DNA from: a virus
DNA length: 64,000 bases
Reading direction: 5' to 3' (one strand)
IMG/VR virus record: IMGVR_UViG_3300019776_000365
Coordinates: 1-64,000 of that record
Part shown: in pieces, positions 1,821-37,389 of the stretch
Layout: each line of letters begins with the position of its first letter
How positions within the stretch are numbered: position 1 is the stretch's first letter
Notes under the pieces: generated by a model
Told to the model about the DNA's origin: nothing
Databases searched by the model: none
The model's input: only the letters and a program-made list of their open reading frames with translations
Position numbers and translations under genes: made by a program

Positions 1821-2510
1821 ATGACAATAAATACTACATGGCTAAGAGATCGCTTTAATCTACAATACAACAATATATTTAGTAATATAGCATCTGGTCT
1901 TGTAGATGAAGAAATATCAATGTATTTAACTATGGCTCATATAGAGATTATAGATGAATATAGCGATGACTTAGATGTTTTTGAAAAATACAGATCGGTA
2001 TTAACATCATATATATATGATGATGTTATAGTTGGGTCAATAGCTGCGACTAAAACTCGTGGTATAGATTATCAAACATTTGAATTCACAAAAGACTACT
2101 GGCGTATATTGAAAGAATATGCAATCACTAATGATAATTCTGATGGATTTCCAATAAAGCCAATAAAATATGATGAGTTTAACACAATGTCAGCCAATCC
2201 ATTTAAATGACCGAATGGGTTAAAGGGTTGGCGTTTAGATATAAATAATGATCCAAACACCGATTCTTTGCGTGATGTAAAGATATTATTTAAAAAACAA
2301 TCTACTGGAGATTATATAAAAGAATACCGTGTTGTTTATTTAGTTCAACCAGAAGGGTTTGATTTAACCAGTGGTGAAATTCCACCACAGTTAACAAACA
2401 ATCAATTCTTAGCCGAAAAGATAGTCAACAGAGCCGTTGAACTTGCGACACGCGACTACAAAGACAACACACTATCAACACAAATACAGATCAATAAAAG
2501 ATCTGAATAA
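1821..2510 (+). CDS. virion ring/adaptor-type structural protein (229 aa, one TGA=Trp at 2208)
   Basis: ORFs 1821 and 2268 are in one frame, joined through NPFK[TGA]PNGLKGWRLD. Ends TAA. Confidence 0.8.
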
Positions 2511-2535
2511 TATTAATTTAATACAGAAATTTTAA

Positions 2536-3708
2536 ATGGCAACATTTTCAACTAGTTCAGTTAGACAACTATTTGTCGCTAACGCATCTTCTGGTACAAC
2601 CGCTGGCAGCTTTGGTGCTGCTACAGTAACAGATGGTGAACTTTCTTTTACTATTTACAATGCATTAGGAAAGCTAGTTAGCTCACCTAGAATTCCACTG
2701 TCAAAAATTCGTTCAGTAAAATCAACAGCGTATTCTCCAAAATGTTTGCGAAAGGATGCTATTAGTTTTTCAACTCCAGTGGTTGGTGAGACTTATATTA
2801 TTCGTTTCGTTATGCGTCAATGGGGTAGTGGTTCTGCTGAAAACCAATACTTTAAACATGTAGGTGCTTACAAAGCAAAAACTGGAGATGATGCAGAGGA
2901 TATTGTAGACGCAATGATTGCTAATGCAGCTGTTAACTTCTCAAGAGAGTCATCAACAATGTTTACGTTTAGCAAGGAAAATTCTGGAGCTGATGCTAAA
3001 CTTATTGTAACAGAGTATGCTCAACCTTGGGTTAAAGGAAAACAGCAAGGTCGTCCATTGGATTATACAATTCAGTTTGTAAAAATCAATGACTCTGGTA
3101 GTGACGTTTACGACTGGGGTACTGTAACAAACATCTTTAAAGCATATCCAGGAGTTGGAACTAACCATGAAGCTCAAGATATGGAGTATTTCTATATGGG
3201 AGAGCGTGGCGATGTTTATCGTAATGTTGGATATCCATTCACATTTGATACTCAGTATATTGCAGACCCTACGGCAAATTACTCAATTATTGACATTGCT
3301 TATTATACAAACGAACCACACAATAGTGGTGGAGAATTTGCTGAAAAAGTAGTCACAATACTATGTAAAGAAGCGGCGACTACAGCTCAGTATGCAATTC
3401 AAATTGCTATTGCAGGTGCTATCAATACAGCCACTGGTGCTACTACTGTACCACTTCTTGTTAATACAGGCTCTTATGTAATACTAAAAGCTGGATCTCT
3501 TGGAACTGCTGGTAATACAGAAATTACATCACTAACATCAGCAACTAAATATGTAATTTATACAAACCCTGGCACTCCTAACGAAACGAAAGGATATGTT
3601 AAGGGGGATGGTACTGTTTCTGCAACAGAATCAGATATTGCTAATTTAGTTAGTACAAAAATTACTGGACTTACAAACGGTGTTACATACTTTGTTAAAG
3701 TATACTAA
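2536..3708 (+). CDS. abundant virion structural protein (auxiliary capsid-type)
   Basis: 390 aa, MATFS..VRQLFVAN start, MEYFYMGERGD motif, Thr/Gly-rich C-terminal extension. Confidence 0.7.
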   Translation: MATFSTSSVRQLFVANASSGTTAGSFGAATVTDGELSFTIYNALGKLVSSPRIPLSKIRSVKSTAYSPKCLRKDAISFSTPVVGETYIIRFVMRQWGSGSAENQYFKHVGAYKAKTGDDAEDIVDAMIANAAVNFSRESSTMFTFSKENSGADAKLIVTEYAQPWVKGKQQGRPLDYTIQFVKINDSGSDVYDWGTVTNIFKAYPGVGTNHEAQDMEYFYMGERGDVYRNVGYPFTFDTQYIADPTANYSIIDIAYYTNEPHNSGGEFAEKVVTILCKEAATTAQYAIQIAIAGAINTATGATTVPLLVNTGSYVILKAGSLGTAGNTEITSLTSATKYVIYTNPGTPNETKGYVKGDGTVSATESDIANLVSTKITGLTNGVTYFVKVY

Positions 3709-3784: not shown

Positions 3785-4162
3785 ATGGATGAAAAAATAA
3801 AATTAGTCATTAATTTAGTTAATTGTATTATAGGTTCTTGTTTGCGCATTAGAGAAATTCATTGGAATACTCACATACAAGCACAGCACAATCTTACAAA
3901 CGATATAATGCCAGAGTTAACAGACGAGATTGACCAAATACTTGAGATTATGATGGGTATATCTGATAGACCTGGTTTTGATATATTAAAGCCAATAATA
4001 CCATCATCTAAAAACCTAAAAGAGATATTACAAGCTCTAGTAATTAAAATAGAAGCTGTTAGATCAATGACAGAAGAGCCAGCATATAAGGGTCTTCATG
4101 CAAATCTTGATGAGCTTACCGCTAATTTAAATAGGTGGATTTACCTATCAGTAAATTCATAA
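3785..4162 (+). CDS. ferritin/Dps-like four-helix protein
   Basis: IHWNT..AQH...D.I.E motif and C-terminal LDEL...LN..IYL. Confidence 0.6.
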   Translation: MDEKIKLVINLVNCIIGSCLRIREIHWNTHIQAQHNLTNDIMPELTDEIDQILEIMMGISDRPGFDILKPIIPSSKNLKEILQALVIKIEAVRSMTEEPAYKGLHANLDELTANLNRWIYLSVNS

Positions 4163-5198: not shown

Positions 5199-5954
5199 AT
5201 GCATACCTATCGAGACATGATATTTATGGTAACCGATGAGCTTAAAGTTTTTTCAGATGATACTTGAGTTGAGTCTGAACACATAGTGCATCTATTAAAT
5301 AAATATAGAGCATTGCTGTTTAAGCAAAGATATGGAAGTAAAAAAACTGAAATACCATACTCATACTATCAAAGACTTAAAGTAAAACTAACTCCAGGGA
5401 GTTATAACAAATATATGTTTAAATCAGAAAAGCCACTACCTAATACTATTAGCTTACAAGATATGTGGAAAGACGGGTTTATTCATATAGACGGTATTAG
5501 AACTGATAATATAAACTTTATTAATCCTAATAGATTTAAGTTTATTGGGTCAAACAAATGATTGGCAAATCAATCGTATGCTACAATAGACTACGATAAA
5601 CACATGTTTATAAAGTGGTCTCAATCACAATTTACGGTTGGTATATTAACATATGATGGAAATAATTCATATATAACAACAGATGAGACAGAAGAGTACC
5701 TGCTAGCATTAGAGGATTTGATGGCTGAAAGTGTATACTATGACGCTATACTAGATGATCCTACAGATATAATATCATTTAATGAGCTAAATGAACTATA
5801 TATAGATCAAGAGTTTCCAGTTGAAGAGGCATTAGTACAACCAATAATAGATCTATGCTTAAAAGAACTTGGTGGCGCTTTGTATAGACCACGTGATGTT
5901 AACAATAATGCAGGTGATGATCTAAGTAACATCAATCAAAATCAACAACAATAA
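5199..5954 (+). CDS. tail ring-type structural protein (251 aa, TGA=Trp at 5265 and 5559)
   Basis: MHTYRDMIFMVTDELKVFSDDT[W]...LLNKYR...FIGSNK[W]L in a single frame, TAA stop. Confidence 0.85.
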
Positions 5955-6511
5955 TGAATAAATCATTTCAAGAGTACGCAAAAAAAGTTAAAAAAGTATC
6001 TGGTAGTAGAAATCATAAGATTAAAAATAGTCTTGGAATGAAAGACGCATACTTTTATTATAGAAAAAACAGACCATCTGATAATAAATACGCATTAACA
6101 GAAAGACAATACTCTTCTATAATAAATGAGATGAATTATTTATGGACTGAAGAGTTAATCAATAAAGGAAAGATGATGTTTCCAGAAGGTCTTGGCGGTG
6201 CTCATATAGTAAAAAATGACGTATCACCAATAATAGATAAAAATGGTAATCTTAAGATTAGAAGAAATGTAAACCCATCTGCTACATTAAAATTATGGTT
6301 TGAAGACGATGAAGCTAGACAAAATAAAACTCTAGTTAGATTTGAATCTGATGAGTCTTTTAAAATCGTTTATTGGATGTCTAAAGCTAAATTTAAGAAT
6401 TACCCATATGTTAGAATACAATTCACCAGAGCTCTTAAAAAACGCCTCCATGAGCGTATTATGAGTGGGGGTTATGATACTTTTGAAAATAGTAAAAAAT
6501 GGGAAATATAA
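5954..6511 (+). CDS. IHF/HU-like DNA-binding protein
   Basis: Basic 185-aa protein with GKMMFPEGLG and F..ALK..L segments, at the usual position in the crAss tail module. Confidence 0.6.
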   Translation: MNKSFQEYAKKVKKVSGSRNHKIKNSLGMKDAYFYYRKNRPSDNKYALTERQYSSIINEMNYLWTEELINKGKMMFPEGLGGAHIVKNDVSPIIDKNGNLKIRRNVNPSATLKLWFEDDEARQNKTLVRFESDESFKIVYWMSKAKFKNYPYVRIQFTRALKKRLHERIMSGGYDTFENSKKWEI

Positions 6512-6517: not shown

Positions 6518-7234
6518 ATGTCACAAATAAAATGAACTAGTTTAAAAATAGTACTAGATAAATTACTTAGAGATCCATTGTTTATAGGTACTCCATTTGA
6601 AACAGTAATGGATTATTTTATAGACTTTATAACAATAGTCGGAACTCCTGAGTTATTTGATGAAAAAGTTACAGACCCTCCGCTAACTATAACTAATTAC
6701 AGGGCTGATCTTCCTATTGATTTTGTAGATGTTGTGCAATTATCTATAAATAAACATATGGCTAGATATACACCAGATACTCATGCTGGGTATTATGATA
6801 AAATAAATGAATATCTAGAAATACCAATACCAGATCAATCACAAGAAGTTACATTTAGAATAAAGGGTAATTACATATATACATCTAAAGAGACTGGAGA
6901 TTTGCTTATGGTTTACAAGTGTATTAAAGTACAAGATGATGTGGATGCTGATGATTATGGATTTCCAATGATACCAGACGATCCTGTGTTTATCAAAGCA
7001 TTTAGGTTGTATGTAGAGAAAGAATTACTTAAATCATTATGGCGTATCGGTAAGGTTGATCAGCGTGTATACGAAGATGTTAAGCAAGAATATGCATGGG
7101 CTGTTGGCCAATATGAAACTCATGCAAAACGACTTGATCTTAGTAAGATGGAAACTATATCTAGATTATTTAGAAGTTTACAATACAAAAATAATGAGTT
7201 CTATACTAGATTTAGACACTTAGGAACTAAATAA
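6518..7234 (+). CDS. tail tubular/ring protein (238 aa, TGA=Trp at 6533)
   Basis: MSQIK[W]TSLKIVLDKLLRDPL extends ORF 6578 in frame. GFPMIPDD and YAWAVGQ motifs. Confidence 0.85.
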
Positions 7235-11293: not shown

Positions 11294-11335
11294 AATAGGG
11301 TGGATATTTATTTTATATTCATCCTATTTTTTTTT
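11294..11335 (+). terminator. intrinsic terminator
   Basis: AATAGGGTGGATAT/ATATTCATCCTATT stem and 9-T run. Confidence 0.8.
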
Positions 11336-11343
11336 GTAATTAA

Positions 11344-11375
11344 CTTTGTATATACAATATATTTTACTATATTCG
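11344..11375 (+). promoter_or_regulatory. putative Bacteroidota-type promoter of the cargo operon
   Basis: TTTG, 19 nt, then TATATTCG, lying directly after a terminator and 20 nt before ATG 11396. Confidence 0.45.
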
Positions 11376-11395
11376 TAGTTATTAATAAATTAAAT

Positions 11396-12157
11396 ATGAA
11401 AAAAAATAACAAACCATTAAAAATAAAACCACAATCTATTTTTGACAATAGATATGACGGAGGTGGATTTATAGACTTATCAAAAACATGAACTCCAAAC
11501 CTACAGCAAGAGACGCAAAATGTTAATCTTCAAATGCTTAAAGATCAAAAAGCAGGAAGGTATGATGTAAATTTAACACAATCAAATAAAACTAATTTTG
11601 GCGATTTAGCTACTAATGGTCTTGGTGTTGCGCAGGGTGTTATGCAATTAGGCTCTCAGATTGGAAATAATTTATCAACTTCTAGTATTGGTCATGAAGT
11701 TCAAGGTGTTCAAGATATATCCAGAGGCGATATTATGAATACAAATATACATGTGGATTCTAATAAAACAAACAGCTTAGGTCAAGCGGCGAGCGGTGCA
11801 TTAACAGGCGCTAAAACTGGCTCTGCATTTGGGCCAGTTGGCACTGCAATTGGCGCTGGCATAGGAGCTATAGCTGGTGGTGTTTCAAGCATATTTGGAA
11901 ATAAGGCTAAAGAGAAAGCAGCTCAAAAAGCAGAAGATATATGAACTAATAATTTAGAAGCTAAAGAAAGACAATTTGAATTTCAAGATTTAAGACAAAA
12001 TATGGCAAATTATTCAGCGTATGGTGGCGATATATTCGCTTATGGTGGACAATTCAGCAATGGATTAACAGAGTATTCCGTTGGAAATGAATATGACCTA
12101 GATGAAAATACTATTAATGATTTAATTAAAAATGGGTATAAAATCGAATACATATAA
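11396..12157 (+). CDS. cargo/ejection protein with glycine zipper (253 aa, TGA=Trp at 11489 and 11942)
   Basis: Continuous frame, GAKTGSAFGPVGTAIGAGIGAIAGG, ends GYKIEYI*. Confidence 0.85.
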
Positions 12158-12863
12158 GGTATATAAACACACATCACCATCGAATAAGGTCTATATAGGT
12201 ATAACAAGCACCAGTGAGACAAATAGATGGTCAGATGGCATGGGATATAGTAGGCAGCCATATTTTTTTAAAGCAATAGTAAAATATGGATGAATTAATT
12301 TTAAACATGAGATATTATTCGATAATTTACAAAAAGATGAAGCTTATAGGCTGGAAACTGAATTAATAAAAGAATATAAAAGTTCTGATTGTAATTATGG
12401 GTATAATATACATATTGGTGGATATATAGACTTCACAATAAGTAAAACTGGAAGAATTTATAAGAAAAGGACAAAACCTGTATCTATTAATCCAAAGTTG
12501 TGACGCAAGGTGACAAAAAGCGATAAAAATGGAAATATAATAAATATATTTGATAATGTTAGGCTTGCAGCTGAAGATGCAAAAGTTCCAACAGAAACTC
12601 TTAGAACTTGATGCAAATTTAATAAACGTCCAAGAAATAATGATTATATATATTCATATGAAGATAATGCTTCAATAGAAAAAACAATTGGATATAAAAC
12701 TGTAAAAGTAGAAAGATATGATTTATCTGGAAATTACATAGATACATTTGATTCAATTGAAGATGCTGGTAGAATTTTAAATATAAAAACAAATCATATA
12801 CCATGCGTTTGTAGAGGGAGACGAGTTCAAACCGGTGGTTATAAATGAAAATATAAAGAATAA
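12132..12863 (+). CDS. free-standing GIY-YIG homing endonuclease with two NUMOD1-like domains (243 aa, TGA=Trp at 12291, 12501, 12609, 12846); absent from the ORF track
   Basis: YKVYKHTSPSNKVYIGIT, NRW, AIVKYG[W]INFKHEIL, E.ELI, GYN, YDLSGNYIDTFDSIEDA, GGYK[W]KY. Confidence 0.9.
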
Positions 12864-12864
12864 A

Positions 12865-14802
12865 ATGAAAATAAAAATAACATCTATACCAAATAAATAT
12901 TCTAATGGTGGCCAAGTGGACTCCATGAATGGTATGCATCTAAAAAAAGATTTAATCTCCTTTTCTACAGGTGGCACACACGAAGACAATCCAAATGGGG
13001 GAATTATGCAGGGCATTGGTGCTAATGGTCAGCCAAACCTAGTGGAGCAGGGAGAAACAAAGCACGATAATTATATATTCTCAGATAGATTAAAAATTGA
13101 TAAGAATATACAACAAGCTTATAGATTACCAAAATCAACTATTGGTAAATCATTTGCAGATGCATCCAAAATCATCAATAAAGAGACTAAAGAAAGACCA
13201 AATGACATTATAAGTAAGAATGGTCAGAAAGCTATGTTGTCAACACTTACTGAGGCTCAAGAAGCACTTAAGCAACAAGACCAAATAGACCAACAAGATA
13301 ATGAAAAAATAAATGTATTAGGTCATGGTGATTCTATATTTGCTAAAGGTGGTCAAATACATATTAAAAAAGAAAATAGAGGTAAATTTACAGAAGCGGC
13401 AAAACGTGCTGGTATGGGTGTTCAAGAATATGCTCATCATGTAATGGCTCATTCACACAATGCAGCATTACGTAAGCGAGCAAACTTTGCTATACAGTCC
13501 AAACGCTGACATAAAGCCTTTGGTGGTGACTTATTTGCGAAAGGAGGGGATTTGTATGATCATTCGGATTATCAATCCTTGGCTGTAGATAAGGGTGATT
13601 ATATAGAGTTACCATCATATGCAAGTGGAGGCGATTTAGATTTATTTGCTTTTGGTGGAGATATGTCACACTTTCATAGAACAGATCATCAGGGCACTAT
13701 AACATATAAAGATGGCGGCAATTTGCAAGATAATAAAACAATAGATGTTTATGGCGATGATTATGTAAAATCATTAATAGATAAAACTGATAAACCAACT
13801 CTTGATAGGTATAATTTTCTTATTAATGAAACAAAAAGATTAAGAGATTTAAATGACCCAAAATATCAACAAGAATTAAATAGGAGAGCAAATCAATTAG
13901 CTATATTAAAATCATCATTACTTCCTGGTGATGTTAAATCAAAAGAGCTACTAAATGAGCCTGGTTATCAACCACAAAGAAGTGATATTATACCAATGTC
14001 TATATTTGCAAAAGGTGGTAATAAAACAACAAGATTACCAAGTTCTTCATTAATTGGATTAAATGATGTTGGAGTGGATATGTCCAAAGTGTATACACCT
14101 AATTTGAAATTAGAAACTCTTGCATCCAATAAGCAACTCAAAGCTAATCAAGCCGCTGACATGTATGATGTACAACCGCAAGATTACAGCAATTCTTATT
14201 ATAATTATAGCGGATTTGACAGATATGCCCCAGTAATGGCCAATATAGGTTTGGGTATATCTGATATATTCTCAAAACCAGAGAGTGTACAATATGGTAG
14301 ATATACACCAGAAGCTATAACATCAAGAATGGATTACACACCATTTGATACAGAATGAATGACTAATAAACTTAAATCACAGGCAGCAGCTACACGTCAA
14401 GGTATTTTAAACACATCCTCTGGCAATAGAGCTACAGCTATGGCTGGTTTATTAGGCGCTAATCAACAATCTAATGAAGCTATAGGTGATGCTTACATGA
14501 GAGCTGCGCAATATAATCAACAACTTAAAAATCAAGCACAACAGTTTAATCTGGGTGTAGAGCAAGCAAATGTAGCGGCAAAAAATCAAGCTCAACTTCA
14601 AAATCTACAATTTCAGCAACAAGAATCACAAGCTAATATGGCTAATAGAGCAGCACAAAGAGCGGCGGTTAGACAAGCTATTATTAATGCAGCATCTAAT
14701 CTTGGTAGCATAGGTCGAGAAAATTGGGCAGCTAACACTGGCTCTCAAATGTTTGGTTATTCTGTAGATCCAAGAACTGGTAAATTAACTTATAATAGAT
14801 AA
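12865..14802 (+). CDS. cargo/ejection protein (645 aa, TGA=Trp at 13507 and 14356)
   Basis: GGTHEDNPNGG, PNLVEQGE, IFSDRL, IHIKKENRGKFT, ANFA...R[W]H motifs and a Gln/Ala-rich C-terminus. Confidence 0.88.
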
Positions 14803-21286: not shown

Positions 21287-24200
21287 ATGATTTGTTCATC
21301 AAACGATCCAAAAGTAAAACAGTTTGAGACTATAGTAAAAGACAATGGCGCAGCAGTTGATGCTGTCCATTGGGCTTTGACTAGTTTTAGTGGTAATGAT
21401 GTAAGAAAAGTTAATGATGCAATTAAGTTTGTAGAACGTATTAAATCAGCTAAACCAACAAGTAAATCTGATGCTGATAAGATATTATCTACGTTAGAAA
21501 AGCAAGGCCTTATAAAGAAAGTGACTACTAGGGCTGGCGATCACTACTCAACTATACACCCAGAACTTCTTAATTATATTATTGAAAATAAAAGAAATGT
21601 AATTAAATCAGCTCGTGGAAATATTAGTGATAACGAAGAAGCGCTTCCGTATGACTATTTGTATTCTGTAAAACCTATCAAAGCAAATACTCAGGATATG
21701 GCTGATTTTGATGATAAAACCAGACTTGAAAAAGTTGGTTTATCTATGGTTGGTACATCATTAATGTCTACCGATGGAGTTGTAAGGATTGAGTTGGTAA
21801 ATCAAACAGTAGACACAATAGTAGAGGATATAGCAAGGGCCGTAATAGATTCAGGTGATAAAGGTATATCAAGGGATGATGTTAAAAAGATTTTTGATAC
21901 ATACTATGATACATTTGCTAGTATAGCTGATGAGTTTGAAGAGGATGGCAATGAGCTTGGCGTTAAACACGCAGAAAGCTATCTCAACAGTTGGAGTAAC
22001 CTTGAAAATATGGTTCTTGACGCTTTAAAAAGAAGGGCTGGTATTGTATTTAAAAATAACAAGCAAGAAAATATTACAGATACTTTATCAAATACAGATG
22101 TAGAAAAAATATCTGAAAATAGTGGTGCTGATTTAGATGGTGCTGATAAAACTCAAGGTATATATTCGGATGATTTTTCTATCACTCTTGATAGTAAGAT
22201 TGGGTTGTCTGGTAGATTAAAGCTATTTATGTCTACATTAAAGAGTGGTAAGGTTCACTACTTAACTAATGAGCCATTATTTGAAAAATTTGATACGGCA
22301 TACAATACTCTTAATGCTATCCTTTCTAATACAGAGCCTAACTTTGGCAAGATGATAGCTAGATTGGATCAATTTAGAGATTATGAATGAATTGCCGATC
22401 TATCAGACAAACTAAAAGCTCAAGGTAGAGATAGCAAATTATCCAAAGAGTTCATTACGGCGATGAATAAACACTACGTTGATATGTCATATATAAGCTG
22501 GTCTAATATGGGCTCTAATGGCTTTAAAATGGCTATTAATGGTGACAATTCAAATTCCAGAGTTAGAATGATATTTAATGATTGGAATGAATCTTTTTAT
22601 AATAGTAATATAGTAAAAACGAACTCTAATTATGTGCAATACTATGACACAAAAGCTGCTAATGACGCTGTGGCTGCATTTGACCATATGTTTGAAAATT
22701 CAGGCACAATTGATGCTCAAACCATTGTAAATACTATGGGTCTTGTTGGTATTAGATTGTCAAATAATACAGCAGAAAATCTATTAAAAAATGGATTTAA
22801 ATATGGAAGAAAACAACTAAATACAAATCAATTATTTGATATAAAGAATACTAATTCTCCAATAACAAGTGTATATAAAAAATTAGCTGCTATATCTAAA
22901 TTAAAAGACAACGTAGAGGTTGGTTCTGATGAAGAGTTAGATTTTCTAAAAGGCGGTGCAATGAGAGCATTGGCTGCTATGGAGTCTAAATACACAAAAC
23001 ACCTATACAGTAACTCATTTCAATCAGGTAATAAGACAATATTTTCATACACTAATGATAAGTTTATAGTTGATAGGTTTTCAGATTTACTTAATGGATA
23101 TAATAATGGAGATTATTCATTATTAGATAGTTTATCTACAGATGCCTTTGCTAAAAACTCAAGATGGTTAACACAGCTATTAAGAGCGAAAGATGCTACT
23201 AATGATAATGATACAGCCTTTTCTGAGGTGTTTGATTTTCTTTACCTATCATTAGATCCTCTTAAAAAAGAGAAAGGCGAAGCCGCTGATAGACCATTAG
23301 CTGATTTATCTCCAAAAGAGATACTGGCGGCTAAGTTAGCCTTGATGTATAACAATGGCATGACAATAGCTGGTGATAAAAATAGAGTTGGTAAAATGTT
23401 TTACCCAACAATGTCAGACAAAACCACTATGATTGCCATACAGAATATATTATTATCAAGACAATATACAAAATTAGACACCGATAATAATGGCAATATA
23501 ACTGTTAACAACGATCTAGTAGATTATATATATGATAATGTAGTTAAAGCTGAAATGAATAGAATGTATGCTATTCAAGAGAAGACTAAAAACTATAGAG
23601 AATCATTAAATGTTGAAGGTTTTGATGGTGGTGCTAGATATTTCTATACAATACCAGAATTGAATGGTATAGCCGACATGTTTACATGAGATGAAGCTTC
23701 TGGTAAACGTTATTTAAAGCAAGAGGATGACTTTATAAAATCATTACCTTTAATTAAAGAGTCTATCAGGTTATCATTAAACGCTATTGTTACAAATCAG
23801 ATAGAGCAATTTAAAAAAGAAGGTATTGGGTATGCGGTTGATGCTGAAAATAAAGAATTGCCATTGCAATATATAGATAGCAGGTTGGTATCATCAGTTA
23901 GAGATTCTTTGGATGATAAATCACTTAAAAATATATCAGATAATATAGCCGCCGACTTTGCTGTTAACTATTTCTTGCATAATCTTAATGTAGCGCAATT
24001 GTTCCATGGAGATTACGTTAACTACTTTAAGAAAAATAAAGCTCAAGAAGAGCTTGAAAAGCAGTTAAAAACAGGTAATGTTTCAGACCTAGCATTGCTG
24101 TATGACGCAGTTAAAGAAACATTTGATAACTTAGGCAAGCGTCTTGCTGCAGATTTAGCTCCTGGCTATGAGGCTGACTATGGTGAGTCTAAGCCATTTA

Positions 24201-25756
24201 TTAAAGTAACTACATCTAATGATAGAAATGTTAAATCATTAGCATCAGATATAGTAAAAGAAGTATTCAAGGATGGTAAGAAAGATCAATCTGAGTCTGA
24301 TAAAAATTCAATAGCTGCATGGAGTAACATTAACTCATCTGACGCTCAATCTTGGAGTTCTTTGGAGTTTCACTTAGATACACTTTATAACTTTGGCAAT
24401 AAATTGGTATCAGAAACTGACTATAAAAAACTAAAAGCAAAAATAAAAGAAGCTAGAGATAATAATAAATATAATGAGTTAGATTTTTCTCAGGATGAGC
24501 TATCTATTATATTAAATCCAACTAAGCCGTTATATTCCAACAATAGACAAGTACCACTTGATGGTGATAGTACTATCGGTGTTAGATCATATATAAAAAC
24601 ATCTTCATTTCCATTAATACCACAATTAGTTAAAGGTACTGATCTAGAGCATGTTGTGAATGCAATGGAGAATGGCGGTGTTGATTTGCATGTATTTGAG
24701 TCTGGTTATAAAGTTGGTTCTACAATACATAGCACTGATAGTAAAGCAGATTCTAATAGTAAGCTAGACTTATTTGATAAAGATGGTAATATGCTATATG
24801 ATAATGTAGCTGCCTTATCTGATAGTAAAAATCACATAATACTTGATATAAAAGGTTTTAAAATACAACAAGAAGTTCCATATCATGATCATCCTGGATA
24901 TATCAATAAGGGATCCCAGGAGTCTAAGTTGTTATTCTCAAACATCAGAGCAATAGAAGGCTTTGAATATGATGGTAAAAAAATGAATGGCGCAGAGCTT
25001 GAAAAAATATATAACCAAAAGTATAAAGAGCTATATAGAAAAGAAGCTGAAAAACTTAGAAATGAAGTATTTGTAAAAGATGCTGATGGTAATCCTACTG
25101 GTCAAGTGGACATACATATGATTCAGAAGTTGTTTAGAGAAGCTGCTAATGATAGAAATTATTCTATCAACGATAAGATAGGTTTATCTCTTGATGATAA
25201 AAATGAAGCATTTAAATTTCCACTATGGTGTTTGCCTGCTGCTCACAAATATGAATCACTACTAATATCTATAGTGGATAATAGAGTTAGAAAGCTTAAA
25301 ATACCTGGTAATTCATTTGTATTAGGCTCTGAGGCTGGATTTAGATTTAAAGATCAAATAATAACAGATAAAAAAGACCAACAAAAGATATTTAAAAAAT
25401 ATCAAGACCAAATAATATTTACAAGTAATGCTGTAATAGAAAATGGTGAGATAAATCTTCAAACATATAGAAGAGATGGTAAGAATATGAAGCCTACTCA
25501 GGTATTTATACCATGTAAACTTCAAGGAAAGAATGGTCACTTTATAGACTTAATGAAATATACTATCAAAAAAGATGGTAGATTATATATAGATGAGAAT
25601 AGATTTCCTAAAGAACTCTCAAATATGTTTGGCTTTAGAATACCAACACAAGGGCACAACTCTATGACATCAATAGAAGTGGCTGGATTCTTACCAGAGG
25701 CTTGTGGCGACTTAATTATAGCTACACAAGATTTGGTTGTACAGATGGGATCGGAT
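21287..25756 (+). CDS. virion RNA polymerase polyprotein, exon 1 (TGA=Trp at 22388 and 23687)
   Basis: SDAQS, KVG, KIPG, FRIPTQG and QMGSD motifs of phi14:2 gp66-type two-barrel RNAP. Confidence 0.9.
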
Positions 25757-26027: not shown

Positions 26028-29000
26028 TTTGACGTGGACAAACTATACACATACATGTATGCTACGAAAGAAATTATCGTAGATAAAGAAAAATCTAAGG
26101 AATTTAAAGCAAAACTTAAAGAGTATTATACCAAAGATCAGATAGAAGCTCGTAATCAATTTGGTGATATTGTAAATATACTTAATAGTGATATTGAGTT
26201 GACAGAAGATCAAGAGTCTATGCTTATTGATACACTAAATAGTATAAAAGAAGCTCATAATGATATTAAAGAAATTAAATCATGGCTTAAAAATAATATA
26301 AAGATTGTTAAAGATGAGGAAAAATCTTTGTTTAATGACCTTTTAGATATACATTTGGCTGTATTTAAAAATGGTAGTGATGATTTGTATAGATTAATTA
26401 TGGCTCCAAATGGTTTTGGTCAGTTAAAAACTGGTAAAACCACTGGACTTGGGTTTGATATTGAGAGACTAAAAGACAACGCTAATAAAAATAGATTAAA
26501 CTATCTATCTCCAGAATACCAACAGATGAAATTCCTTAACGGCACTTCAGGCAAACAAGGTGTGGGAATTTTTAGTTCGCTATCTATGTTTAACTCAATC
26601 ACCCAAGGCAAAGAGCTTAGATATGTTAATAAGTCATCAGATAGCGATAGAAGTGTATTCAGTGTTACATTTGGTAATGAAAAATCTAATGGCGAGTTGG
26701 GTTTATTAAAAACAATCAATGGAAAGTACTTCACATCTAAAGTTATTGAAGCGTTTCAGTCTGCATCTGTAGATAATGAGAAAGAACAAATTCTATACAA
26801 ACTAAATATAAACAAATACACAGCACCCGTTATTAATGCTTTAGCTGTTTTAGGCTTTGATGAAGAGACTATATGTTATTTCATTAATCAGCCTATAATA
26901 GAATATTACACAGAATTTATGGCATCTAAGGATTCATCATTAAATGATTTCGATCCAGATGCCGGCGCTAATGTTTTTGATAAAATAGAGAATTTTATAA
27001 TAGGCAAGTACAATATAACTGATATTGACAACTCATTAAATAATTCTGGAGTTGATGTTTTAAAAGAACAAATTGCAACTAAAGAACAAAATAGATCTAA
27101 AAGTTTTTGGGAAAAACAACTTGGATTGCTTAGAAAATTTGAAGAAATTAACGAAGTTGGCAATTCAGTTCAAGCATTGATGCAAACCGTAAATGCAGAG
27201 TCTAAAGGACTCGGTAAGACATTGTTTGGCTCATTATCAAGAGAAGATAAAATTAATGATATAGATGATGTAACTGAGAGGTATAACTCTGGTAAGTCAG
27301 CTACAGGTATTATTAATGCAGGTAGAATTCTATATGAATTTAATGAAGATGGTGAGTATACAACTAATGAGTTTAATGGAAAAATCACAGACTCATTAAA
27401 TGGTTTTGTAGCAGAGTATGGCACTAAAATATTAAATAATATTGGTTCTCAAATATTCCCATATAGAAAGAAGCCAATTAATGATATATTTGATTATCTA
27501 AGAGAGCTATTAGGCAAGAAAGGTTCTTCAATATCTCAAGATGAAGATTTTATGGGTAAAACTTTTACAGCAATGAAGTCGTATTTATTCTCTAATACTA
27601 ATCTATATGGAGATAAAGTTGATTTAAAGGCTGAAAGAAAACGTTTATTTCTTGGTGAATATAAACTATTAGATCCAAATAATCCTAACGGAGAAGCTAT
27701 ATTAGTAAACCCATCACTTGCTGACACCATAGAAGCATTAAAAAATGAAAACATAGGTAAGTCTAACATGCTACTCAGGATGCTTACAGTGGACAAAAGA
27801 ATGACCTCTAGCGCTGTTAAACTGGTTAAATATAATGCAGCATCTGGTCAAAATGCAGATGAGTCTGAAATACACCAAGCATTTATAGCTTTATTTAGAG
27901 AAAATGTGCCATTAGAGTATAAAATTGGTGATAAAATTAATAAGATAAACTCAAGAGATCTTGCTTTAGATTTAATTAAATACACTTATTTATCTGGTGG
28001 CTCTCAAGAGGCTATACAATTCACTAGATATATACCTATAGATGTGCTTGAATATATTGGATTTGGCGATAGAATCAATACTATAGCAAAAAATATTAGC
28101 TTATCACATTTTGGTACAAGTGTAGAAAAAAATTCAATTAAAAATTCCAACTTTGTTGAACAGTATTTACAACATAACCCAAGTAAAGTGCCAGTCAAAA
28201 TTAAAGGTAAACTAAACAAAGGCAATAAAGATTTAAAAAATGTTCAAATAAAAGATGGTATTGTTTGGAAATTCACTCCAAACTTTACAGTAGATACAAC
28301 TAAAGGTTCCGCTGATTATATGTTAGGTCAAAAATATGTTGTTGGCATGACCGACAATATGAAATATCTAATATATAAATTTAATGGTACTGAGTTTGTA
28401 AATATACCTACACTTGGAACATTTGGTATGAGTGAATATGACTTTAACCTACCATCAGGAGAAGTTGCTCAATCTGTAATTACATCAAGAAATATAACTC
28501 CTTTAAATGAAAACAAACCTAGTGATATTAGCAATAAATTATCACAACAGGTTAAGCAAGAAGAGTTAGATGTAACAAAAGAATATGACTTATATAAGAA
28601 TTCATTAGATAATGAAAATCAAATTAAAGGTATATTAGAGTTAATATCAAAAAATGGTAATGAAGCCAACAGTCGCATTGCTAAAAAGCTATTAGAAAAC
28701 ACTCACCTTTTAAATTCTATTAGTGATTATAATTTATCTTATGGAGATGTTGGTAGGTCATCTGGTAGGCACAACATGTATGATAAAACTATAACCATAT
28801 CTAATATTAAAAACAAGTTTAAATCAAAAGATAAACTTGAAAATACTTTAGTTCATGAAATAGTTCATGCATATACTGTTAGAACGCTTAGATTAATATT
28901 TGATGATAAATTCAAATCAGAAAATATAGAAGAGTTTGAAAATCTAGATCCTAAAATTATTGAATCCGCTCGTAGAATTAGATCTATAAGAAGAGCTTTA

Positions 29001-31691
29001 GTTTATAAGGCTAAGTCATCTTCTAAAGAACTTAGCGATAAACTTAAAGACATAGAAGCTTGGTGGGCCAACAACAAAACAACTAAACTTACAGAAGAAC
29101 ATAAATTTGCTTATTCATTGAGTGATGATTTTGAGTTTGTCTCAATGGCGCTTACAGATAGTAGTTTTAGGTCAGAGATTGATAAACTAGATTCTATAAG
29201 TGATAATAATAGCACTCTAAAGAAGCTATGAGACGCTTTGCTTAAATTCTTAGGTCTTGATAGTGTATCTAATATAGATAAAACATTTATTGAAAACAAT
29301 ATATTTAATTTTATAGATACTATTGAAACATCTATTAAAGAACCATCAAAAAAGATTGACAAGAAAGAATTTAAAGATAATGAAGAGTATAGAAACTTAT
29401 CCAATATACTTGATGAAATAGAGTCTAAAAAAGAAGTTGAGATAATTAAAGAGCCAGTTAAATATTACGAAGGAAATATAACTCCAGATAAAAATACTAT
29501 ATTTGTTTTTGGTAGTAATCCAGAAGGTCGTCATGGTGCTGGTGCCGCTAAAATAGCGAGAACACAATTTGGCGCTATTTATGGTCAAGGTGAAGGATTG
29601 CAGGGTAATGCATATGCTCTACCAACAAAAGATCTCAGGATTACCGAAAATAAAGGATTTAAATATATATCATTTGATCAAATCGTAGAAAACATTAAAA
29701 AACTATATGAAGTTGCCAAACAAAATCCAGATAAACAATTCAAAATAGCTTATAGAAATACTACGACAACATCTTTAAATGGATATACTGGATTGGAAAT
29801 GATTGAGATGTTTAAAACTGCCGGTGATATTCCATCAAATATTGTATTTAGTAAAGAGTGGATTGAAACTGGCGAATTTAATAAAAAAGAAGAACCAAAA
29901 GTTGAAGAGCAAACAAAACAAGAAGATCCAAAAAGTAAATCATTTTCATATAAAGGTGTATCAATAGACACTGAATTTCAATTAGGTGAAGACCAAGACA
30001 AATCACTTAAAGAGTTAATAGATTTTATTGATGGCTCATCTGACACAGCAATGACACTACAAGGTGCTGCTGGTACTGGCAAAACAGCTACAATTGGTTA
30101 TCTTCAGAAATACTTAAACAAAAAAGGTTATACTCCTTTTGTTTATATGGCTCCAACACATGCAGCAACTGTAGAATTAGCATTTGCTACTGTTAAAACT
30201 GGAAATACATCTATGCCATTTACTGTAGCTAAGGCTGTAAGATATGATAGTCTAAATAAAAAGAATGTATTTACCATGAGAATAAATGAAATTTTATCTT
30301 ATGGTGGTGTTATAGTAGTCGATGAATCTTCAATGCTTGATGATAATGACGTAAATGCTATAATAGAAGCATCTGAAAATATTGGTGTTAAGGTTGTTTT
30401 TATGGGTGATGAGAAGCAGATACCAAAGGTTAGCAAAGAAGGTGGTGATGTAATGTCATTATTTGGTGAAGATTTTGGGACTATTAAAAAAAGAGTATCA
30501 TCTGCTTTTACGAAACTAAAGCAAACAAATCTTAGACAAGTTTTTAGACAATCAGACAATGGATTGCTTGCACTTTTATCTAAAATGAGATCTCAAAATA
30601 ATTTTAAATTATTTAAAGTGAATAACAGAAAGTCTGTAAAATTTGTTGATAGAAGTGAGTATAATAAATTATTAAGGGAAGATATATTAAACGATCCTGA
30701 AAATACTATTGTTATATCATACACAAACGGTTCTGTTCAAGAAGTTAACAAAAATGTTAGATTAATTAGAGGTATGAGTGGTAGTCCAAAAGTGTTTGAT
30801 GTTATCATTGGATATATAGGGTATGCCAATAAAAAGATAGATGCTGGGAATATAGCTAATAGTGTTCAATATACTATTGATACAATACAAAGAGATGGCT
30901 CAGAACTTAGAATTATAGCAAATTCTGATAAACTAAAACAACTAGTTGATTTAGGGATATCTGGTATATCTAAAGTAGCATTTACTAGATATTTGCAGTT
31001 ATCACAAGGTGATAGTCTTTCTATTGATGATATGACAAAAGAAGATTATGACAACAACAATGAAACATTATCTAATATATTTAGATCGGTGCATGAATTA
31101 AATATGGCTTATGACAGAAAACAGATTAAATATTACACATATCTAAATGCATTAGCAGAAAAAACTGCTATTTTAGCTGAATTGTCTGTTGGTGATAGTT
31201 ATATTTATAATCCAAAAATCGATAAAATGGAGCGTTATGATCAAAAGATTCATAAAAACATCAAATCATCTGGTAGTGGGTCTTTGTTGTTTGAGAAGGG
31301 CGTTGATTATGGTCATGCTATAACAATACATAAATCTCAGGGATCTACTATAAACAATGTTTATTTTGACGCAGATTCAATAAATTCAGCTAGAGATACA
31401 AAAATACTTGATGAAAAAGACAATCAAGTCACAACTGAAAAAATGGCTTTAGCTTATGTAGCTATGAGTAGAAGTAAGAATAAACTTGTTGTAAATAAAG
31501 GTAGTCAAGCTTTTGAACAGATAGATGAAAATGAAGTTGAATCATTGCCTGAATTTAACGACTCTAGTTTTTTCGAATTAACAGAGGATGAAAGCAAAAC
31601 TTTAATTAAAAAGCATGGCGACAAAGCTATAGAGATGTATAATAACTTAAATGACGAACAAAAAGAAATAATACTTAAATGTTTAAGATAA
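26028..31691 (+). CDS. virion RNA polymerase polyprotein, exon 2, with zincin, macro-like and SF1 helicase domains (TGA=Trp at 29229; about 3377 aa in total)
   Basis: FDVDKL, SASVDNEK, HEIVH, FVFGSN..GRHGAGAA, GAAGTGKT, DESSM, GD..Q, TIHKSQGS and YVAMSR motifs. Confidence 0.9.
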
Positions 31692-31692: not shown

Positions 31693-34600
31693 ATGGCTAA
31701 ATGTATAATACATAATGATAAATTTAAAGACCTGGTTGAAAAATCAGGTCTTAACTCTATGCAATTAGAGGCTGAGATGAATCTTTGGATGACTAGAAAT
31801 AATACAGATATTTGGCCAACTCTTAGTCAATTGGGTATTGAATTCAAAGATATAACAAAAGAACATAAAGGCATTATAAGAAATAGACTTTCAGATATAA
31901 TCCCAAACATATCTGAAGATAAATTTAAAGAGATATATGAAAATTATACTTCATTAATGGGTAGAGGCGGTAGGCCTGGGAAGGAATTGCCTTTTAATAA
32001 ATTCAAAGCGTTTGTTTCAAATGCAAATGTGTATAACTATAAAGATACTTTTATTTTTGGACACTATGATACAATAAATAATGTTTTTATAACTACCATA
32101 AGTAGCAGCCCAAGTAGTAAAGAACTTTTAGCTGAAGCTATACCAAATATAGCTAAGAATTTTGATGTTATAGGATTTGCGCCAAAGGATGTTGTTGGCA
32201 AATATAAAAGAAGTGGATACGTTGTTAGCGATGCATTTTTTAATTATAATTTTAGAGGCGAAGAAATGAATAAATTTCTATATGCATCAAATCCTAATAT
32301 AACAAAACGTATATATGGTAAAAATATAGAAGATTTATCTCAGAAGGAAATATTGGATTTAGATAATAGATCGTTGGGGTATATTTCATTTAGAAATCTT
32401 CTTGACGAATTAGTTACAAATAAAGATAATTATAACTATAATATTGTAAACAATAACCTAAAAGAGCTTAGGGTTCCAGCTCATCAAAGAGAGAGGTTTT
32501 TAAAAGAAATAAAAAATGGTAGATATGAATATACAGAATACTCACTAATACCAGCAATCAAAAAGCTATACGATTTTAAAAAGGTTGATATTGATGAGAA
32601 AGACGAAAATGCTCTAAATCAAATAGTTCCAGATACCGAAAATCAATTAAACAAACTGTTAGTCAATTATCTTTCTAACTTTGGAATAAAAACAGAATAC
32701 ATTGAAGATATACAAAATAAACTTGGTATAGATTCACTAGGAACTGTTGATATTCTTAACAAAATTGCATATGTAGATAAAGATAATACTGAAGATTTGC
32801 CGGAAATTGCAGGTAAATTTATAGCATATATGCTTCAACACAACCCATTGATAACATCCACATATGAACAGCTTAGAAAAATAGGTAAATATAAAAATAG
32901 TAATAAGGATGAATTGTTAGATATAATAGGCGAACTTATAGCTAAAGAGTTGCACAACAAAACGGATGTTAATTTACCTAAATCTTTAGCAGAAAAAATA
33001 CAATCTATAATTGCATATTTTTTTGATTTACTAACAAAGGCCAGAATAAATAAAATCAACAAAGATATTGGAGTTATTGTTGATTCAATCTTATCAAATA
33101 ATAAATCATTAATAACCGCAAGTAAATACAAGCCAGGATCTCCTGGTAAACAGGTTTTGCAAGTGTCACTAAAAGAGGCATTAAGATCTGATAGTTTTGC
33201 TAACTCTATAGTTAACAAGATGGCTGATAAAGGATTTATTCTAACTGGAAGTGTTGTTCTTTCAGAGCAGGGCTCTATATTTAGACCAGAAGAAAATCAA
33301 GTTCATGATTTAGATTGGGTAAATCCTCATAATGAAGAAAAAACTAATGAGATATTAGATGAAATATATCCAAATAGAAAACATATAAGAAATATATATA
33401 ACGAAGGTGAAGAGTCGTATACTCATACATTTTTAATAAGTCCAGAAGGAACTAAAATAACAAACCTAAAACTTGAGGGGTCAAATTCCATAGTTAGATC
33501 ATACAATATAGTAAATGATAATAATGAAATAGTTGGCTCTTATTCCAATGAAAATGGTGTTGAAAGATCTAATGGTATTGAAGGGAAGGCTATAGATCTA
33601 TTTATGAATGAACGTAACAAATTAACTCCAACTCAAACAATATTAGAATCTGGAATAGTTTTAAACATGTCAAATTGAAGAGATATTTTTAAAGCTAAAC
33701 TAAGATATGCAAGATTAAAAGATATCTGAGACTATAATAGATTTATACCAAATGAAAATATAACAATAAAAGAAATTGCAAAATCAGAAATTAAAGGAGA
33801 AACTTATAATTCCACAGAAGATGCCCCAGATATGACAGAGCCAGATGATATTACCGAAATGGGAACTTTATTTGACATAGAAATACCTGATGAATATAAG
33901 CTGTCAGATTTCAACTTAACAGAAGAAGATGAAGATACTATAAGTCAAAGCTCATACGCTAATCTTACAAGGATGCTTATATATAGACGCAATGATATAT
34001 ATAATGACATGCAAAATACTAGTACAGCCATTAGAAATGCTAAAGATGAATCTGAAAGAACCAAACTTAGAGAAAAGTACGCTGAGTTAAAAAGCAAAAT
34101 GGACTCTATCGTTGAACGTATAGATAAAGCCAATCAGCTTAAAAACATATCTCAATTAGTTACATTTGGTGAAGAGGATTTATCTGAGGCTATAAAGTTG
34201 TTAGAAGATCCTAATTTAACAGAGCATGGCCTTAGATATGCTAAAAGAATTGTTGATTTTTGGATTAAAGTAGCTGATTTTAATGTAGAGCGTGAGGGCC
34301 ATGTTTTATTTGGTAAGAGCTACGATAAAGTTATATCAGATAAAGAAAAAAATGAGTTTTTAGATTTGGCTAATAGAAAAGAAACTGGTGCTATAGCTTT
34401 GAGTCATATAATCAATGGGCTATCTAGAGATTATATATCAAAAATGGTTAATAAACAATTAGATGGGACATTTAGTATAAAAGATATATATAAAGCTATA
34501 GAAGATATTAACTGGTGGAAAGCTAATGCATTCTCAATACAAGACTATTCTTCGCCATTATTAACGGCTATGTATAAAACTATGCGTCAAGCCGACATGG

Positions 34601-37389
34601 ATGCTTCTAAAGAGGCTGAAGTGCTATCTAAACAGTTGAATGATCTACTTAGTAGGGTTAACAAAAAGCTAACATCAAAAGGAAGTGGTAGATATAGGAT
34701 ATTCTATCAAGAAGAGAATGGTAAGCTAAATGGTAATCTAGTAAGGATATATACAAAGAAATATCAAGATACAAAAGAAGAGTTACTTAAAAAAGCTCAA
34801 AATGCCACTGGTGACAATAAGGCTAGAGCTTGGGATGATTTTAAAAGATGGTCTAAAGCCAATGAAGATCTAATAGATATTAGATTGTTGTTCCCCACAG
34901 AAGAGTTAACTCAAGATCAACAAATAGCAGCAGATAAACATAAAGCTCATATACTTAAAATGTTGGGTCAACGACAGTACGATAAAGTTATGAGTGAAAT
35001 TTCTGAAGCTTTAATTGATTATGATATATCAAGAAATCTAAAGAAGAATCAATTAGAATTAGATGATACTTTATCTGAAGATGATAAGTTTTTTAAACTA
35101 AAAGAGTGAGAGCATAAGAAATCTCCATATATTGAGATGGAGAGACGCTTGGGTAGTTTAGAAGATGATGGTACATACAAGGATTCTAAAGTTATGTTAG
35201 GCCCTAATAGAACATTTGCAGACAAAGGCGTTAGAGGTCTTAGAACTATTGCAAAAGAGTATTTGAGTGATGGTACAAAAACAGAATGGTATGATCCTAA
35301 ATTTAAAGAAATATCTAAAGATAAGGATTTGTTAGAGCTGTATAACTTCATATACGATACTATGGATTATATGAAGACATTATTACCAGAGCATCAGAGA
35401 AATCAAATATCAACTAATACACTACCATTTATAGAAAAATCTATTGTTGATATGTTTTCTGAAAACTCCGCTATTGGCATGGCTAATATGTGGAGTGAGA
35501 TACAGAACTCATTTATGATTAAAAACTTAGATGAACGCAAATATGATGAAATTGATGTAACAACAGGCAAGGCTATATCAAAGGTAAAAGTTACCACCTT
35601 TATGTCTGGAGATAAGAGATTAAATGATGCTATAAAAATAAAAGAAGCTGAGTTCATAGCTAAGACTGGTAAAAACCCATCAAAAGAAGATGCAGTAAAA
35701 TTTAGAAAAGAAGCTTTAGATGATTTAAATAAAGAAAGATCATTTGATTTGCCATCATTAATAAAGATGTATACAGGCTCGTTATTGGCCTATAAGCATA
35801 AATCTAACGTTATAGATATAATAGAGATAGCTAGAGATGCCGTTGATGAAATAAGCGAAATATCGACATCTAATGCCGGTAGAGAGCAAATAGATCCATT
35901 GACTGGTAAGCCTAGAGTTCAAGCTGGACTAACACACCTCAAAGAGTCATTAGATTACGCCATGGATGCTTTTAAAGGGCAGCCAATACATACTAGAACG
36001 GCTGCATCACAAAATAAAAAATACAACCATAAAGACAAAGTAGAATTAAATAAGTTATTATCTACTAAAGCTTTGTTGGATGAAAAATTTAATAAAGGTA
36101 AGATTAGCAAAGCAGAGCATGATAAGCAAATATCTGTAATAGACAGTAAAATAAACTCATTGGGAGGATATGCTTCTTTTGAAAAAGCTGGTGAAAATGT
36201 ATTGAAATACATTCAACTTAAAGGCATGGGATTTAATGCTATAGCAGGTGCTGTCAATCTAACTACAGGCTGGTTAGAGAACTGCATTAGATCTGCTGAT
36301 GGTAGGTTCTTTGATTCATCTCAATTAGGAGCTTCATATAGAGATGTTATGTCTACTATATACGACCCTATGAGAAAAAATAGCACTACTAGAAAATTGG
36401 TAGGTATAGAAAAGTCCTTAAGGATATTAAATAATCCAGCTCATGAGTTGTATAAAACCGAGTCTAAGTTTGGAAAAGTAGCTTATATTATAACAGAAAA
36501 GACTGAGTTTGTGAACGTTATGTCTATGTCTGGTGCTTATCTTAGAAATATTAAAGTTAAAGACGCTAAAGGCAATGATTCTAATCTATATGAAGCATTT
36601 AAAGAGGATGGGTCTATTAAAGATGGCTGGAAGTTAAGCAATACTAAAACTAATGATGAGTTTTTGTTTGATGTAAGCCAAGCTATACAAGCTTTAATTA
36701 AAAGATCTCATGGTAACTACAGAGATTCACTCAAGGGTAAAAAAACTATATTGGGTCAAATGGCCTTTCAGTTTAGGACTTGGATGCCAGAATTGTACAA
36801 TTCAAGGTGAGGAGCAACTCAGTATGACTATATACTTAATAAAGAATTTAAGGGTAGATGGAAATCATATGGCACATTAACTGGTAGTGAGTTTAATGGA
36901 AATACATTTACAGCAGCAGACAATACATTGTATACATTAGGTCAGCTATGTAGAAAGATATTATTTATGAGGACTTCATTTGATGGTAGGATGTCAGAAG
37001 TTGATGCTGCTAACATGAAAGCAAACCTTATGGAGCTTCATTTTGTACTTGGTACTATAGCTTTGATGTTAATGTTAAGAGCAGCCATTCCAGATGAAGA
37101 TAGAAAGAAAAACTTTACATATAATATGTTGATTAATCTTATTACAAGACAGCAGAATGATATATTAGTTTTCGCTAACCCTGGGACATTTGAGCAGATT
37201 AATAAAAATGTATTACCAGTAACAAGTGTTATATCTGATACTAAAAACTTAATGACGGCTATTAAAAATGAATTTAGCGATGATGATAAACAGCATGGTA
37301 AATCATTTGTTAAGGCCGTTAAGATGGTCCCACTTGGAGGCCAGCTAGTTAGAATTGGTCAATATGGATCTAAAGAAATAGCTCAATAA
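31693..37389 (+). CDS. giant ejection protein 3 (1898 aa, TGA=Trp at 33676, 33727, 35107, 36808) with internal nucleotidyltransferase-like domain
   Basis: Four ORFs in one frame joined only by TGA. HGNY, QFRTWMP and GRWKS motifs. Internal LTGS...DLD. Confidence 0.88.

Follow-up and report, generated by a model that had tools for sequence, protein, structure and literature searches.

A complete crAss-like phage with two coding regimes: probable reading of TGA as tryptophan in late genes and a phage-encoded tRNA(UCA) as candidate decoder

Introduction

Late-gene recoding, together with phage suppressor tRNAs, has been described in crAss-like phages of the human gut (Yutin et al., 2021, PMC7886860), and it has been extended to eight further clades with a proposed lysis-timing model (Borges et al., 10.1101/2021.08.26.457843). 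Here we analyze a phage of the same order as the gut genomes, the virus record IMGVR_UViG_3300019776_000365, a single contig of 90,821 bases whose first 64 kb (70% of the genome) constitute the stretch under study, hereafter the window; only one sequencing run contains this stretch, an aquatic metagenome and possibly its source, and no RNA data set is listed for it. An earlier reading made from the letters of the window had proposed that TGA means tryptophan in the late genes of the + strand, giving the genome two genetic codes, and that late translation depends on a phage-supplied UCA suppressor tRNA and/or on inhibition of release factor 2 (RF2), acting as a timing switch. As detailed below, alignments, codon counts and tRNA genes support this reading of the code and its limitation to late genes. 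The phenomenon itself is already described for crAss-like phages, of which the window phage is a further member, and RF2 inhibition and the putative timing switch are a published model and not a new one (10.1101/2021.08.26.457843; PMC7886860).

Regarding TGA, the most similar systems are found in several lineages. [quoted passage not shown] In the Zeta crAss-like phage Lera (2025, PMC12386605), TGA interrupts the TerL, polymerase, helicase, lysin and holin genes, a tRNA-Sup(TCA) is encoded, and the tryptophan meaning was drawn from homologues, as in the present case; Lera however belongs to another family, its genome is almost double the size, and it encodes a tRNA-Sup(CTA) as well.

The closest named phages are cr108_1 (TerL 58%, portal 62% identity) and crAss001, both Steigviridae. 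Their gene order is that of the window phage, i.e., a tRNA cluster followed by TerL, portal, major capsid protein (MCP), gp43–gp47 and a giant polymerase, with TerL and portal 43–62% identical, but they have TGG or a Phe/Tyr codon at the window phage's TGA sites and no stop inside the aligned late genes, and crAss001 has a tRNA-Trp(CCA) and no tRNA(UCA). PHROG profiles and tblastn recognized a crAss-type TerL, portal and MCP in the new genome as well as homologues of crAss001 gp31, gp33, gp34, gp36, gp40 and gp42–gp47. The genome has the features expected of Crassvirales: these packaging and capsid proteins, a giant virion RNA-polymerase-like protein with the DxDxD motif and two opposed gene blocks. 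The first 99 bases of the record recur at its end, in agreement with its IMG/VR class (direct terminal repeats), and CheckV rates the genome (~90.7 kb, 30.6% G+C) as 100% complete. The window phage is hence a complete crAss-like phage, nearest to Steigviridae, with a TerL at most 58% identical to that of any named phage and IMG/VR contigs as its nearest relatives.

Sense TGA in the late block

The + strand gene block begins at the tRNA genes (71.65 kb), crosses the ends of the record and finishes at position 37389 of the window, and the opposed − strand block, which encodes ribonucleotide reductase, a helicase, an exonuclease and an amidoligase cluster, extends from 37449 to ~70.5 kb. When gene calls under translation tables 4 and 11 were compared, table 11 fragmented the + strand genes and table 4 joined the fragments, the − strand genes being intact under the standard code, as expected from the sequence-only reading. 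From 1821 to 37389, table 4 gives eleven + strand frames with exactly 37 in-frame TGAs. A group I intron divides a single gene into two of these frames; the earlier count of 37 codons in ten genes is therefore exact. The claim that these codons join adjacent open reading frames (ORFs) is also borne out: downstream of each table-11 TGA 'stop' a frame continues in the same phase, and neither TAA nor TAG interrupts the joined frames. Regarding the stops of the + strand, said to be 17 and all TAA, the codon was right for the window, where 18 of 18 frames terminate with TAA; beyond the window, four + strand frames terminate with TAG.

At the scale of the whole genome, the late block contains 53 TGA and 118 TGG codons, TGA thus providing 53 of 171 Trp codons (31%) and occurring in 20 of 31 frames, whereas on the − strand, 60 ORFs with a minimum of 50 codons contain 149 TGG and no internal TGA (Fisher p = 7e-17 for the TGA share of the two blocks). 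These 60 ORFs stop at TAA (52), TGA (6) or TAG (2). Within the window, the 30 long ORFs on the − strand contain 103 TGG and no internal TGA, and three of them stop at TGA, which agrees with the proposed use of TGG for Trp on this strand. The notion of a strand-restricted code has nevertheless to be amended. Indeed, sense TGA is found in + strand late genes and spares the − strand, but the + strand block opens with ~4 kb, a leader with four tRNAs and ten small ORFs (72159–76020), that also have 0 TGA for 10 TGG. As this part of the + strand is free of TGA, recoding is confined by module and not by strand: it starts at the terminase gene (genome position 76020), spans the genome ends as far as window position 37389 and concerns packaging, virion and lysis genes, with portal, tail, lysis, capsid and virion genes followed by that of the giant virion RNA polymerase, early genes being readable with the standard code (53/171 versus 0/149). 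If TGA is sense, conserved phage genes are open despite their in-frame TGAs, including TerL (6), portal (2–3), the gp44-like gene (14) and others, while table 4 applied throughout the genome generates many spurious antisense frames. The base following sense TGA (A 21, G 16, T 11, C 5) has the ordinary composition of a first codon base, with no positional preference.

Residues aligned with TGA

To prevent any bias toward Trp, each TGA was translated as X before alignment and the partner residue was then read. Compared with crAss001 and cr108_1, Trp is the partner in 22 of 56 TGA pairs and most of the others are Phe or Tyr; the phage's own TGG codons, used as a control, gave a similar picture (Trp in 65 of 124). 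The TGAs of the five motifs previously singled out as resembling conserved Trp positions (12291, 12846, 10585, 8410 and 9967) all align with Trp in crAss001 and/or cr108_1. The comparison was extended to relatives from 63 IMG/VR loci retrieved through TerL, an IMG/VR search with the gp44-like protein having found no relatives. Among ~520 pairs, the partners include Trp 242 times, Tyr 83, Phe 31 and Gly 3 times, and 61 are stops in the relative, invariably TGA; the residues opposite TGA are mostly Trp or Phe/Tyr and almost never Gly. Conversely, TerL and portal of relatives have in-frame TGAs opposite the phage's TGG 64 times, and all 15 loci whose TerL is at least 71% identical exchange TGA and TGG at the same sites. 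As judged from these alignments, TGA very probably means Trp in the late genes. Gly, Gln, Cys or random residues as its general meaning were ruled out by the partner residues, of which Trp is the commonest, followed by Tyr and Phe.

Individual genes illustrate this pattern. In the gp44-like protein, TGAs 8410, 9967, 10309, 10585 and 11194 align with Trp and 7318, 8353 and 9766 with Phe or Tyr. In the polymerase-like gene, TGA 22388 corresponds to Trp in 62 of 126 homologues and 23687 to a variable site. The giant late protein has Trp in 6 of 8 homologues at 33676, Trp in 5 of 8 and Phe in 3 of 8 at 33727, Trp in 2 of 5 at 35107, and Trp in 2 of 8 and Phe in 6 of 8 at 36808. The gp47-like protein is aligned without a break, over residues 5–1595, with a 1583-aa homologue (P0138), its four TGA sites being variable and none of them Trp. 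TGA 14356 of the gp45-like gene directly precedes an ATG, yet sits within homologue alignments, and TGA 29229, which lies between the polymerase-like and helicase parts of its frame, is Trp in P0020 and P0022, single proteins spanning both. The junction-like TGAs of the giant ORFs thus fall, according to alignment, inside single continuous proteins of other phages.

This last site bears on the proposal that suppression is only partial, each TGA giving a truncated and a full-length product, with 29229 for example as a programmed leaky stop that sets their ratio. Host RF2 is presumably active, no anti-RF2 phage factor was found and 29229 is close to a domain border, all of which would suit such a mechanism. 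We nonetheless consider it unlikely: homologues have Trp at 29229 within one continuous protein, a 1349-aa structural protein with 14 TGAs would hardly be completed at all unless suppression were efficient, and TGAs occupy conserved Trp positions of terminase and portal.

As for the host, we infer a standard-code bacterium (TGA = stop) from the TGA-free early block, the six early TGA stops and the Bacteroidota hosts of Crassvirales. Some Gracilibacteria/Absconditabacteria phages follow a host in whose own code TGA is sense (10.1101/2021.08.26.457843), and a host using table 4, or table 25 with Gly, could in principle account for the late genes. This appears very improbable in view of 60 − strand ORFs with 149 Trp codons, no internal TGA and six TGA ends, of Gly opposite TGA in only 3 of ~520 pairs, and of the Bacteroidota hosts of crAss-like phages, which use table 11 (PMC7886860); moreover, a tRNA(UCA) of the phage's own would be superfluous. 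A code 25 phage, with TGA as Gly in all gene classes, was also rejected, TGA being rarely opposite Gly and absent from the − strand block.

More distant TerL relatives have other codes. In IMGVR_UViG_3300035501_000201 (L032) many in-frame TAGs align mostly with Gln, and in IMGVR_UViG_3300000062_000001 (L037; 48% identity, 106-kb genome) in-frame TGAs are found at Trp sites. The code has consequently changed repeatedly within this portion of the crAss tree. A further relative (L061) carries at 2321–2393, within a tRNA array, a tRNA with the ochre-reading anticodon UUA, and its TerL is without in-frame stops.

The phage tRNA(UCA)

The suppressor tRNA that had been predicted is present. No tRNA was found within the window, consistent with the earlier remark that no decoding factor is visible there, and 7.65 kb beyond its end a tRNA(UCA) gene occupies genome positions 71652–71722 on the + strand (ARAGORN call tca, 71652–71724). 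It opens the + strand block as well as a row of four tRNA genes on that strand (71652–72128) with anticodons UCA, CAU, UAA and UAU; five close relatives also have a tRNA(tca) upstream of TerL. The Rfam tRNA model matches it over its full length (54 bits) with every stem paired, and its acceptor stem is of 7 bp, its anticodon stem of 5 bp and its anticodon loop C-U-[UCA]-A-C, with a 4-base variable loop, A1-U72 and G73. The major identity determinants for bacterial TrpRS are G73 and the anticodon bases. G73 is found in 7 of 7 distinct tRNA-Trp(CCA) genes of related phages, in which the discriminator is A73 for tRNA-Gln, U73 for tRNA-Cys and U73 or A73 for tRNA-Gly.

The remainder of the search for code-change factors, which the sequence-only reading had extended to RF1 and TrpRS, yielded the tRNA and nothing else: in this genome rated 100% complete, there is no match to a release factor domain (PF00472, RF1/RF2) or to TrpRS and class Ib synthetases (PF00579), and tRNA(UCA) is therefore the only visible code-change factor. 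BLAST of the tRNA against phage records and Escherichia coli genomes returned nothing useful for its isotype. Regarding its expression, the surroundings of the tRNA contain no excess of sigma-70-like sites over shuffled sequence, and a Bacteroidota-type TAnnTTTG lies ~130 bases upstream, a motif of which dozens are expected by chance in the genome.

ARAGORN labels the tRNA 'SeC' from its anticodon, which would fit TGAs that are selenocysteine codons; assembly errors or decayed genes are further alternatives. Such explanations are virtually negligible. The interruptions are only TGA, never TAA or TAG, and always in phase, and TGA recurs at these sites in relatives from different samples. A selenocysteine tRNA was specifically rejected: the molecule, whose acceptor stem is of 7 bp and whose variable loop is of 4 bases, has neither the long extra arm nor the 8- or 9-bp acceptor stem of tRNA-Sec, and the TGA partners are Trp and not Cys.

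The early block contains another tRNA-like element (genome 68859–69016, − strand), matched by the Rfam tRNA model with 38 bits and with perfect acceptor, D and T arms, in which ~100 extra bases replace the anticodon arm and for which ARAGORN makes no call.

tRNA(UCA) designs among relatives

Close relatives have different tRNA(UCA) genes at the same locus upstream of TerL. The window phage shares a plain design, with anticodon and T arms in common, with L007, L012 and L013; a second plain design, unrelated to the first, occurs in L065; and L036 and L067, whose TerL is 71–76% identical to that of the window phage, have a two-armed design. In these two-armed tRNAs (93–99 bases), a second hairpin is inserted between the anticodon and T arms, and its loop (..UCCAA..) copies the anticodon loop of tRNA-Trp. 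In addition to those listed in Table 1, ~35 more were found in L192–L302. The stems of the extra arm are different in each case and complementary in all, and G73 is found throughout. A census made irrespective of the CCA loop showed the ...UCCAA... loop in the extra arm of nearly all long-armed tRNA(UCA) with G73 and of none with C73. A literature search found no paper on a two-armed tRNA(UCA) with a spare CCA hairpin. The tRNA of the window phage has the same job and locus as those of L036 and L067 but is without the second hairpin, having a plain 4-base variable loop and the UCA arm only. With at least three tRNA(UCA) designs at one locus, in phages with TerL at least 71% identical and the same TGA Trp sites, the opal suppressor may be a swappable cassette in this clade, a proposal that we make tentatively.

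Recoded genes and introns

The genes of the window are collected in Table 1. Beyond the structural proteins, TGA is present in both homing-endonuclease genes and in all three lysis genes, with one codon in each of the latter. The first lysis gene encodes a membrane-anchored, crAss001 gp27-like protein, the second a holin-like protein whose transmembrane helix ends at the TGA, and the third an M15 endolysin (Peptidase_M15_3 match) with H73 and D80, in which TGA is codon 115, two codons before H117. Termination at codon 115 would hence yield a product without the third zinc ligand. Among the late-block genes free of TGA, the exonuclease at 4265–5197 (+) is a 3'-5' enzyme of the RNase_H_2 fold (phrog_403, 'DNA polymerase exonuclease subunit') with 8 TGG and 0 TGA, and cr108_1 has the same gene in the same position; it may represent a replication-type gene kept readable with the standard code.

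The group I intron of the polymerase-like gene is inserted within the D-F-D-V-D (DxDxD) metal-binding motif. Exon 1 ends with ...QMGSD and exon 2 starts with FDVDKLY..., and uninterrupted homologues read ...MGSD|FDVDKLY through the site; T is the last base of the 5' exon and G that of the intron. The intron closes with ATG, in frame with exon 2, and the second half could consequently also start without splicing. In cr108_1, a 290-base gap occurs at the same place. The MCP gene is split after codon 333 by an insertion of ~930 bases (genome 90028–90722 plus window 1–234, exon 2 being window 235–744), which contains a LAGLIDADG_2 homing-endonuclease ORF with one TGA. We take this insertion for a probable second group I intron; no intron was reported here by Rfam, to which the sequence could not be submitted whole as it spans the record ends.

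Table 1. Coordinates of recoded and standard-code genes, the polymerase intron and two-armed tRNA(UCA) genes (window positions unless a locus is named)
Feature	Position	Strand	TGA codons and remarks
crAss001 gp34-like structural gene	1821..2510	+	1 sense TGA (2208), spanned by homologue alignment; variable site, Arg/Glu
Virion protein, phrog_9863, crAss001 gp40-like	5199..5954	+	5265, 5559; 5559 is Trp in cr108_1, Phe in crAss001
gp43-like tail tubular protein	6518..7234	+	1 TGA (6533): Trp in crAss001, Tyr in cr108_1
gp44-like virion structural protein, 1349 aa	7237..11286	+	14 TGA versus 8 TGG
Glycine-zipper protein	11300..12157	+	11489, 11942; 0 TGG; frame continuity alone, no homologue over the TGAs
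Free-standing GIY-YIG/NUMOD homing endonuclease	12132..12863	+	4 TGA versus 1 TGG; 12291 and 12846 are Trp
gp45-like protein	12835..14802	+	13507 (Trp in cr108_1), 14356 (Tyr/Phe)
gp47-like protein, 1596 aa	16480..21270	+	16606, 17122, 17767, 19945
Giant virion RNA-polymerase-like gene, exon 1	21287..25756 (table-4 frame 21287-25765)	+	22388, 23687; ends ...QMGSD
Group I intron, ORF-less, 271 bases	25757-26027	+	Rfam RF00028, 94 bits, at 25729-26015
Polymerase exon 2: C-terminal part fused to Dda/PIF1-like helicase	26028..31691 (table-4 frame 26025-31691)	+	1 TGA (29229)
Giant late protein, 1898 aa	31693..37389	+	33676, 33727, 35107, 36808, all spanned by homologues
TGA-free late-block genes	MCP exon 2 (frame 229-744), 817-1818, 2536-3708, 3785-4162	+	
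TGA-free late-block genes	exonuclease 4265-5197, HU/IHF-like 5954-6511, 14807-16465	+	
Replication and nucleotide-metabolism block, standard code	37449..64000	−	TGG only; TGA stops 54420, 56015, 61162, 62626, 63230
Two-armed tRNA(UCA)	L036 3997-4090; L067 6975-7068; L189 8199-8291		
Two-armed tRNA(UCA)	L129 6885-6979; L190 11110-11202; L191 4245-4343	−	

Proposed working of the two-code genome

It is highly probable that the window phage uses two codes, with the − strand and the leader in the standard code and a late block in which TGA is Trp, the phage tRNA(UCA) acting as decoder. Early and leader genes would be translated by the unmodified host. tRNA(UCA), presumably charged with Trp by the host TrpRS, would compete with host RF2, and late messages would give full-length proteins only once the phage tRNA is charged and outcompetes the release factor. 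According to the published model, late and lysis proteins could not be completed until the phage tRNA accumulates; the M15 endolysin, for example, would halt two codons before its third zinc ligand until the tRNA is present.

Several observations weigh against this interpretation. Regarding the codon, about one third of the covered TGA sites are variable, with no aromatic counterpart, so that read-through is shown at these sites but not the residue; 14 of the 37 TGAs of the window were uncovered in the first comparison, of which 16606 was later spanned, but proved variable, and 8998, 9136, 9280, 11489 and 11942 are supported by frame continuity alone. Regarding the tRNA, crude isotype profiles built from the tRNAs of related phages gave Gln as best match (22 bits), with Trp outside the top six. 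The tRNA-Gln genes of related phages have U1-A72 and A73, unlike tRNA(UCA), and, as the profiles do not place the molecule with Trp, its Trp identity is founded on G73, C35-A36 and the protein alignments. The early genes that stop at TGA number six, and the next TAA or TAG in their frame is no closer than in other genes (medians 3.5 versus 6.5 codons, one-sided p = 0.22), which gives no support to an adaptation by tandem stops. Finally, the tRNA is on the same strand as the late genes and heads the same block; it may accordingly be made with them and not before them, which weakens a simple timer.

Recoding may thus serve as a timing switch or a safety lock, a purpose that we find about as easy to doubt as to accept. 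It is also possible, if somewhat less probable, that recoding is real and involves no timing switch, being either a neutral by-product or a consequence of a tRNA that damages host translation through read-through of host TGAs. In the neutral version, TGA stops are rare at 31% G+C, a suppressor tRNA is captured, and TGG drifts to TGA in the genes translated while the tRNA is present. Both versions are discussed in the literature (PMC7886860; 10.1101/2021.08.26.457843), and they are in line with TGA making up 31% of Trp codons in the late block and occurring in most of its genes with no positional or +4 preference, with its rarity as a stop even in the early block (6/60) and with the free swapping of TGA and TGG at the same sites among relatives. 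The sharpness of the boundary (0/149 on the − strand, 0/10 in the + strand leader) is less easily explained: drift alone maintains it only if those genes precede the action of the tRNA, which is the timing model recast, and all three lysis genes have a TGA. A neutral origin and an anti-host role are hence serious rivals for the purpose of the recoding, not for the code.

Concluding remarks

For annotation, standard gene calling breaks up the late half of the genome into false fragments, roughly doubling the number of calls, and a correct description needs two codes and two intron joins. To the TGA-recoded crAss-like phages, the window phage adds an environmental, apparently non-gut lineage with at least 15 IMG/VR relatives, not named in the papers cited here. 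Its recoding raises no new question on its own. With a single tRNA and neither a release factor nor a synthetase, the phage is a compact system in which the lock-or-timer model could be tested. Moreover, if the suppressor is indeed a swappable cassette, the window phage would be a natural control for its two-armed relatives: A1-U72, G73 and C35-A36 would suffice for charging with Trp, and the spare arm would be an optional booster, not a requirement, of opal suppression in this clade.

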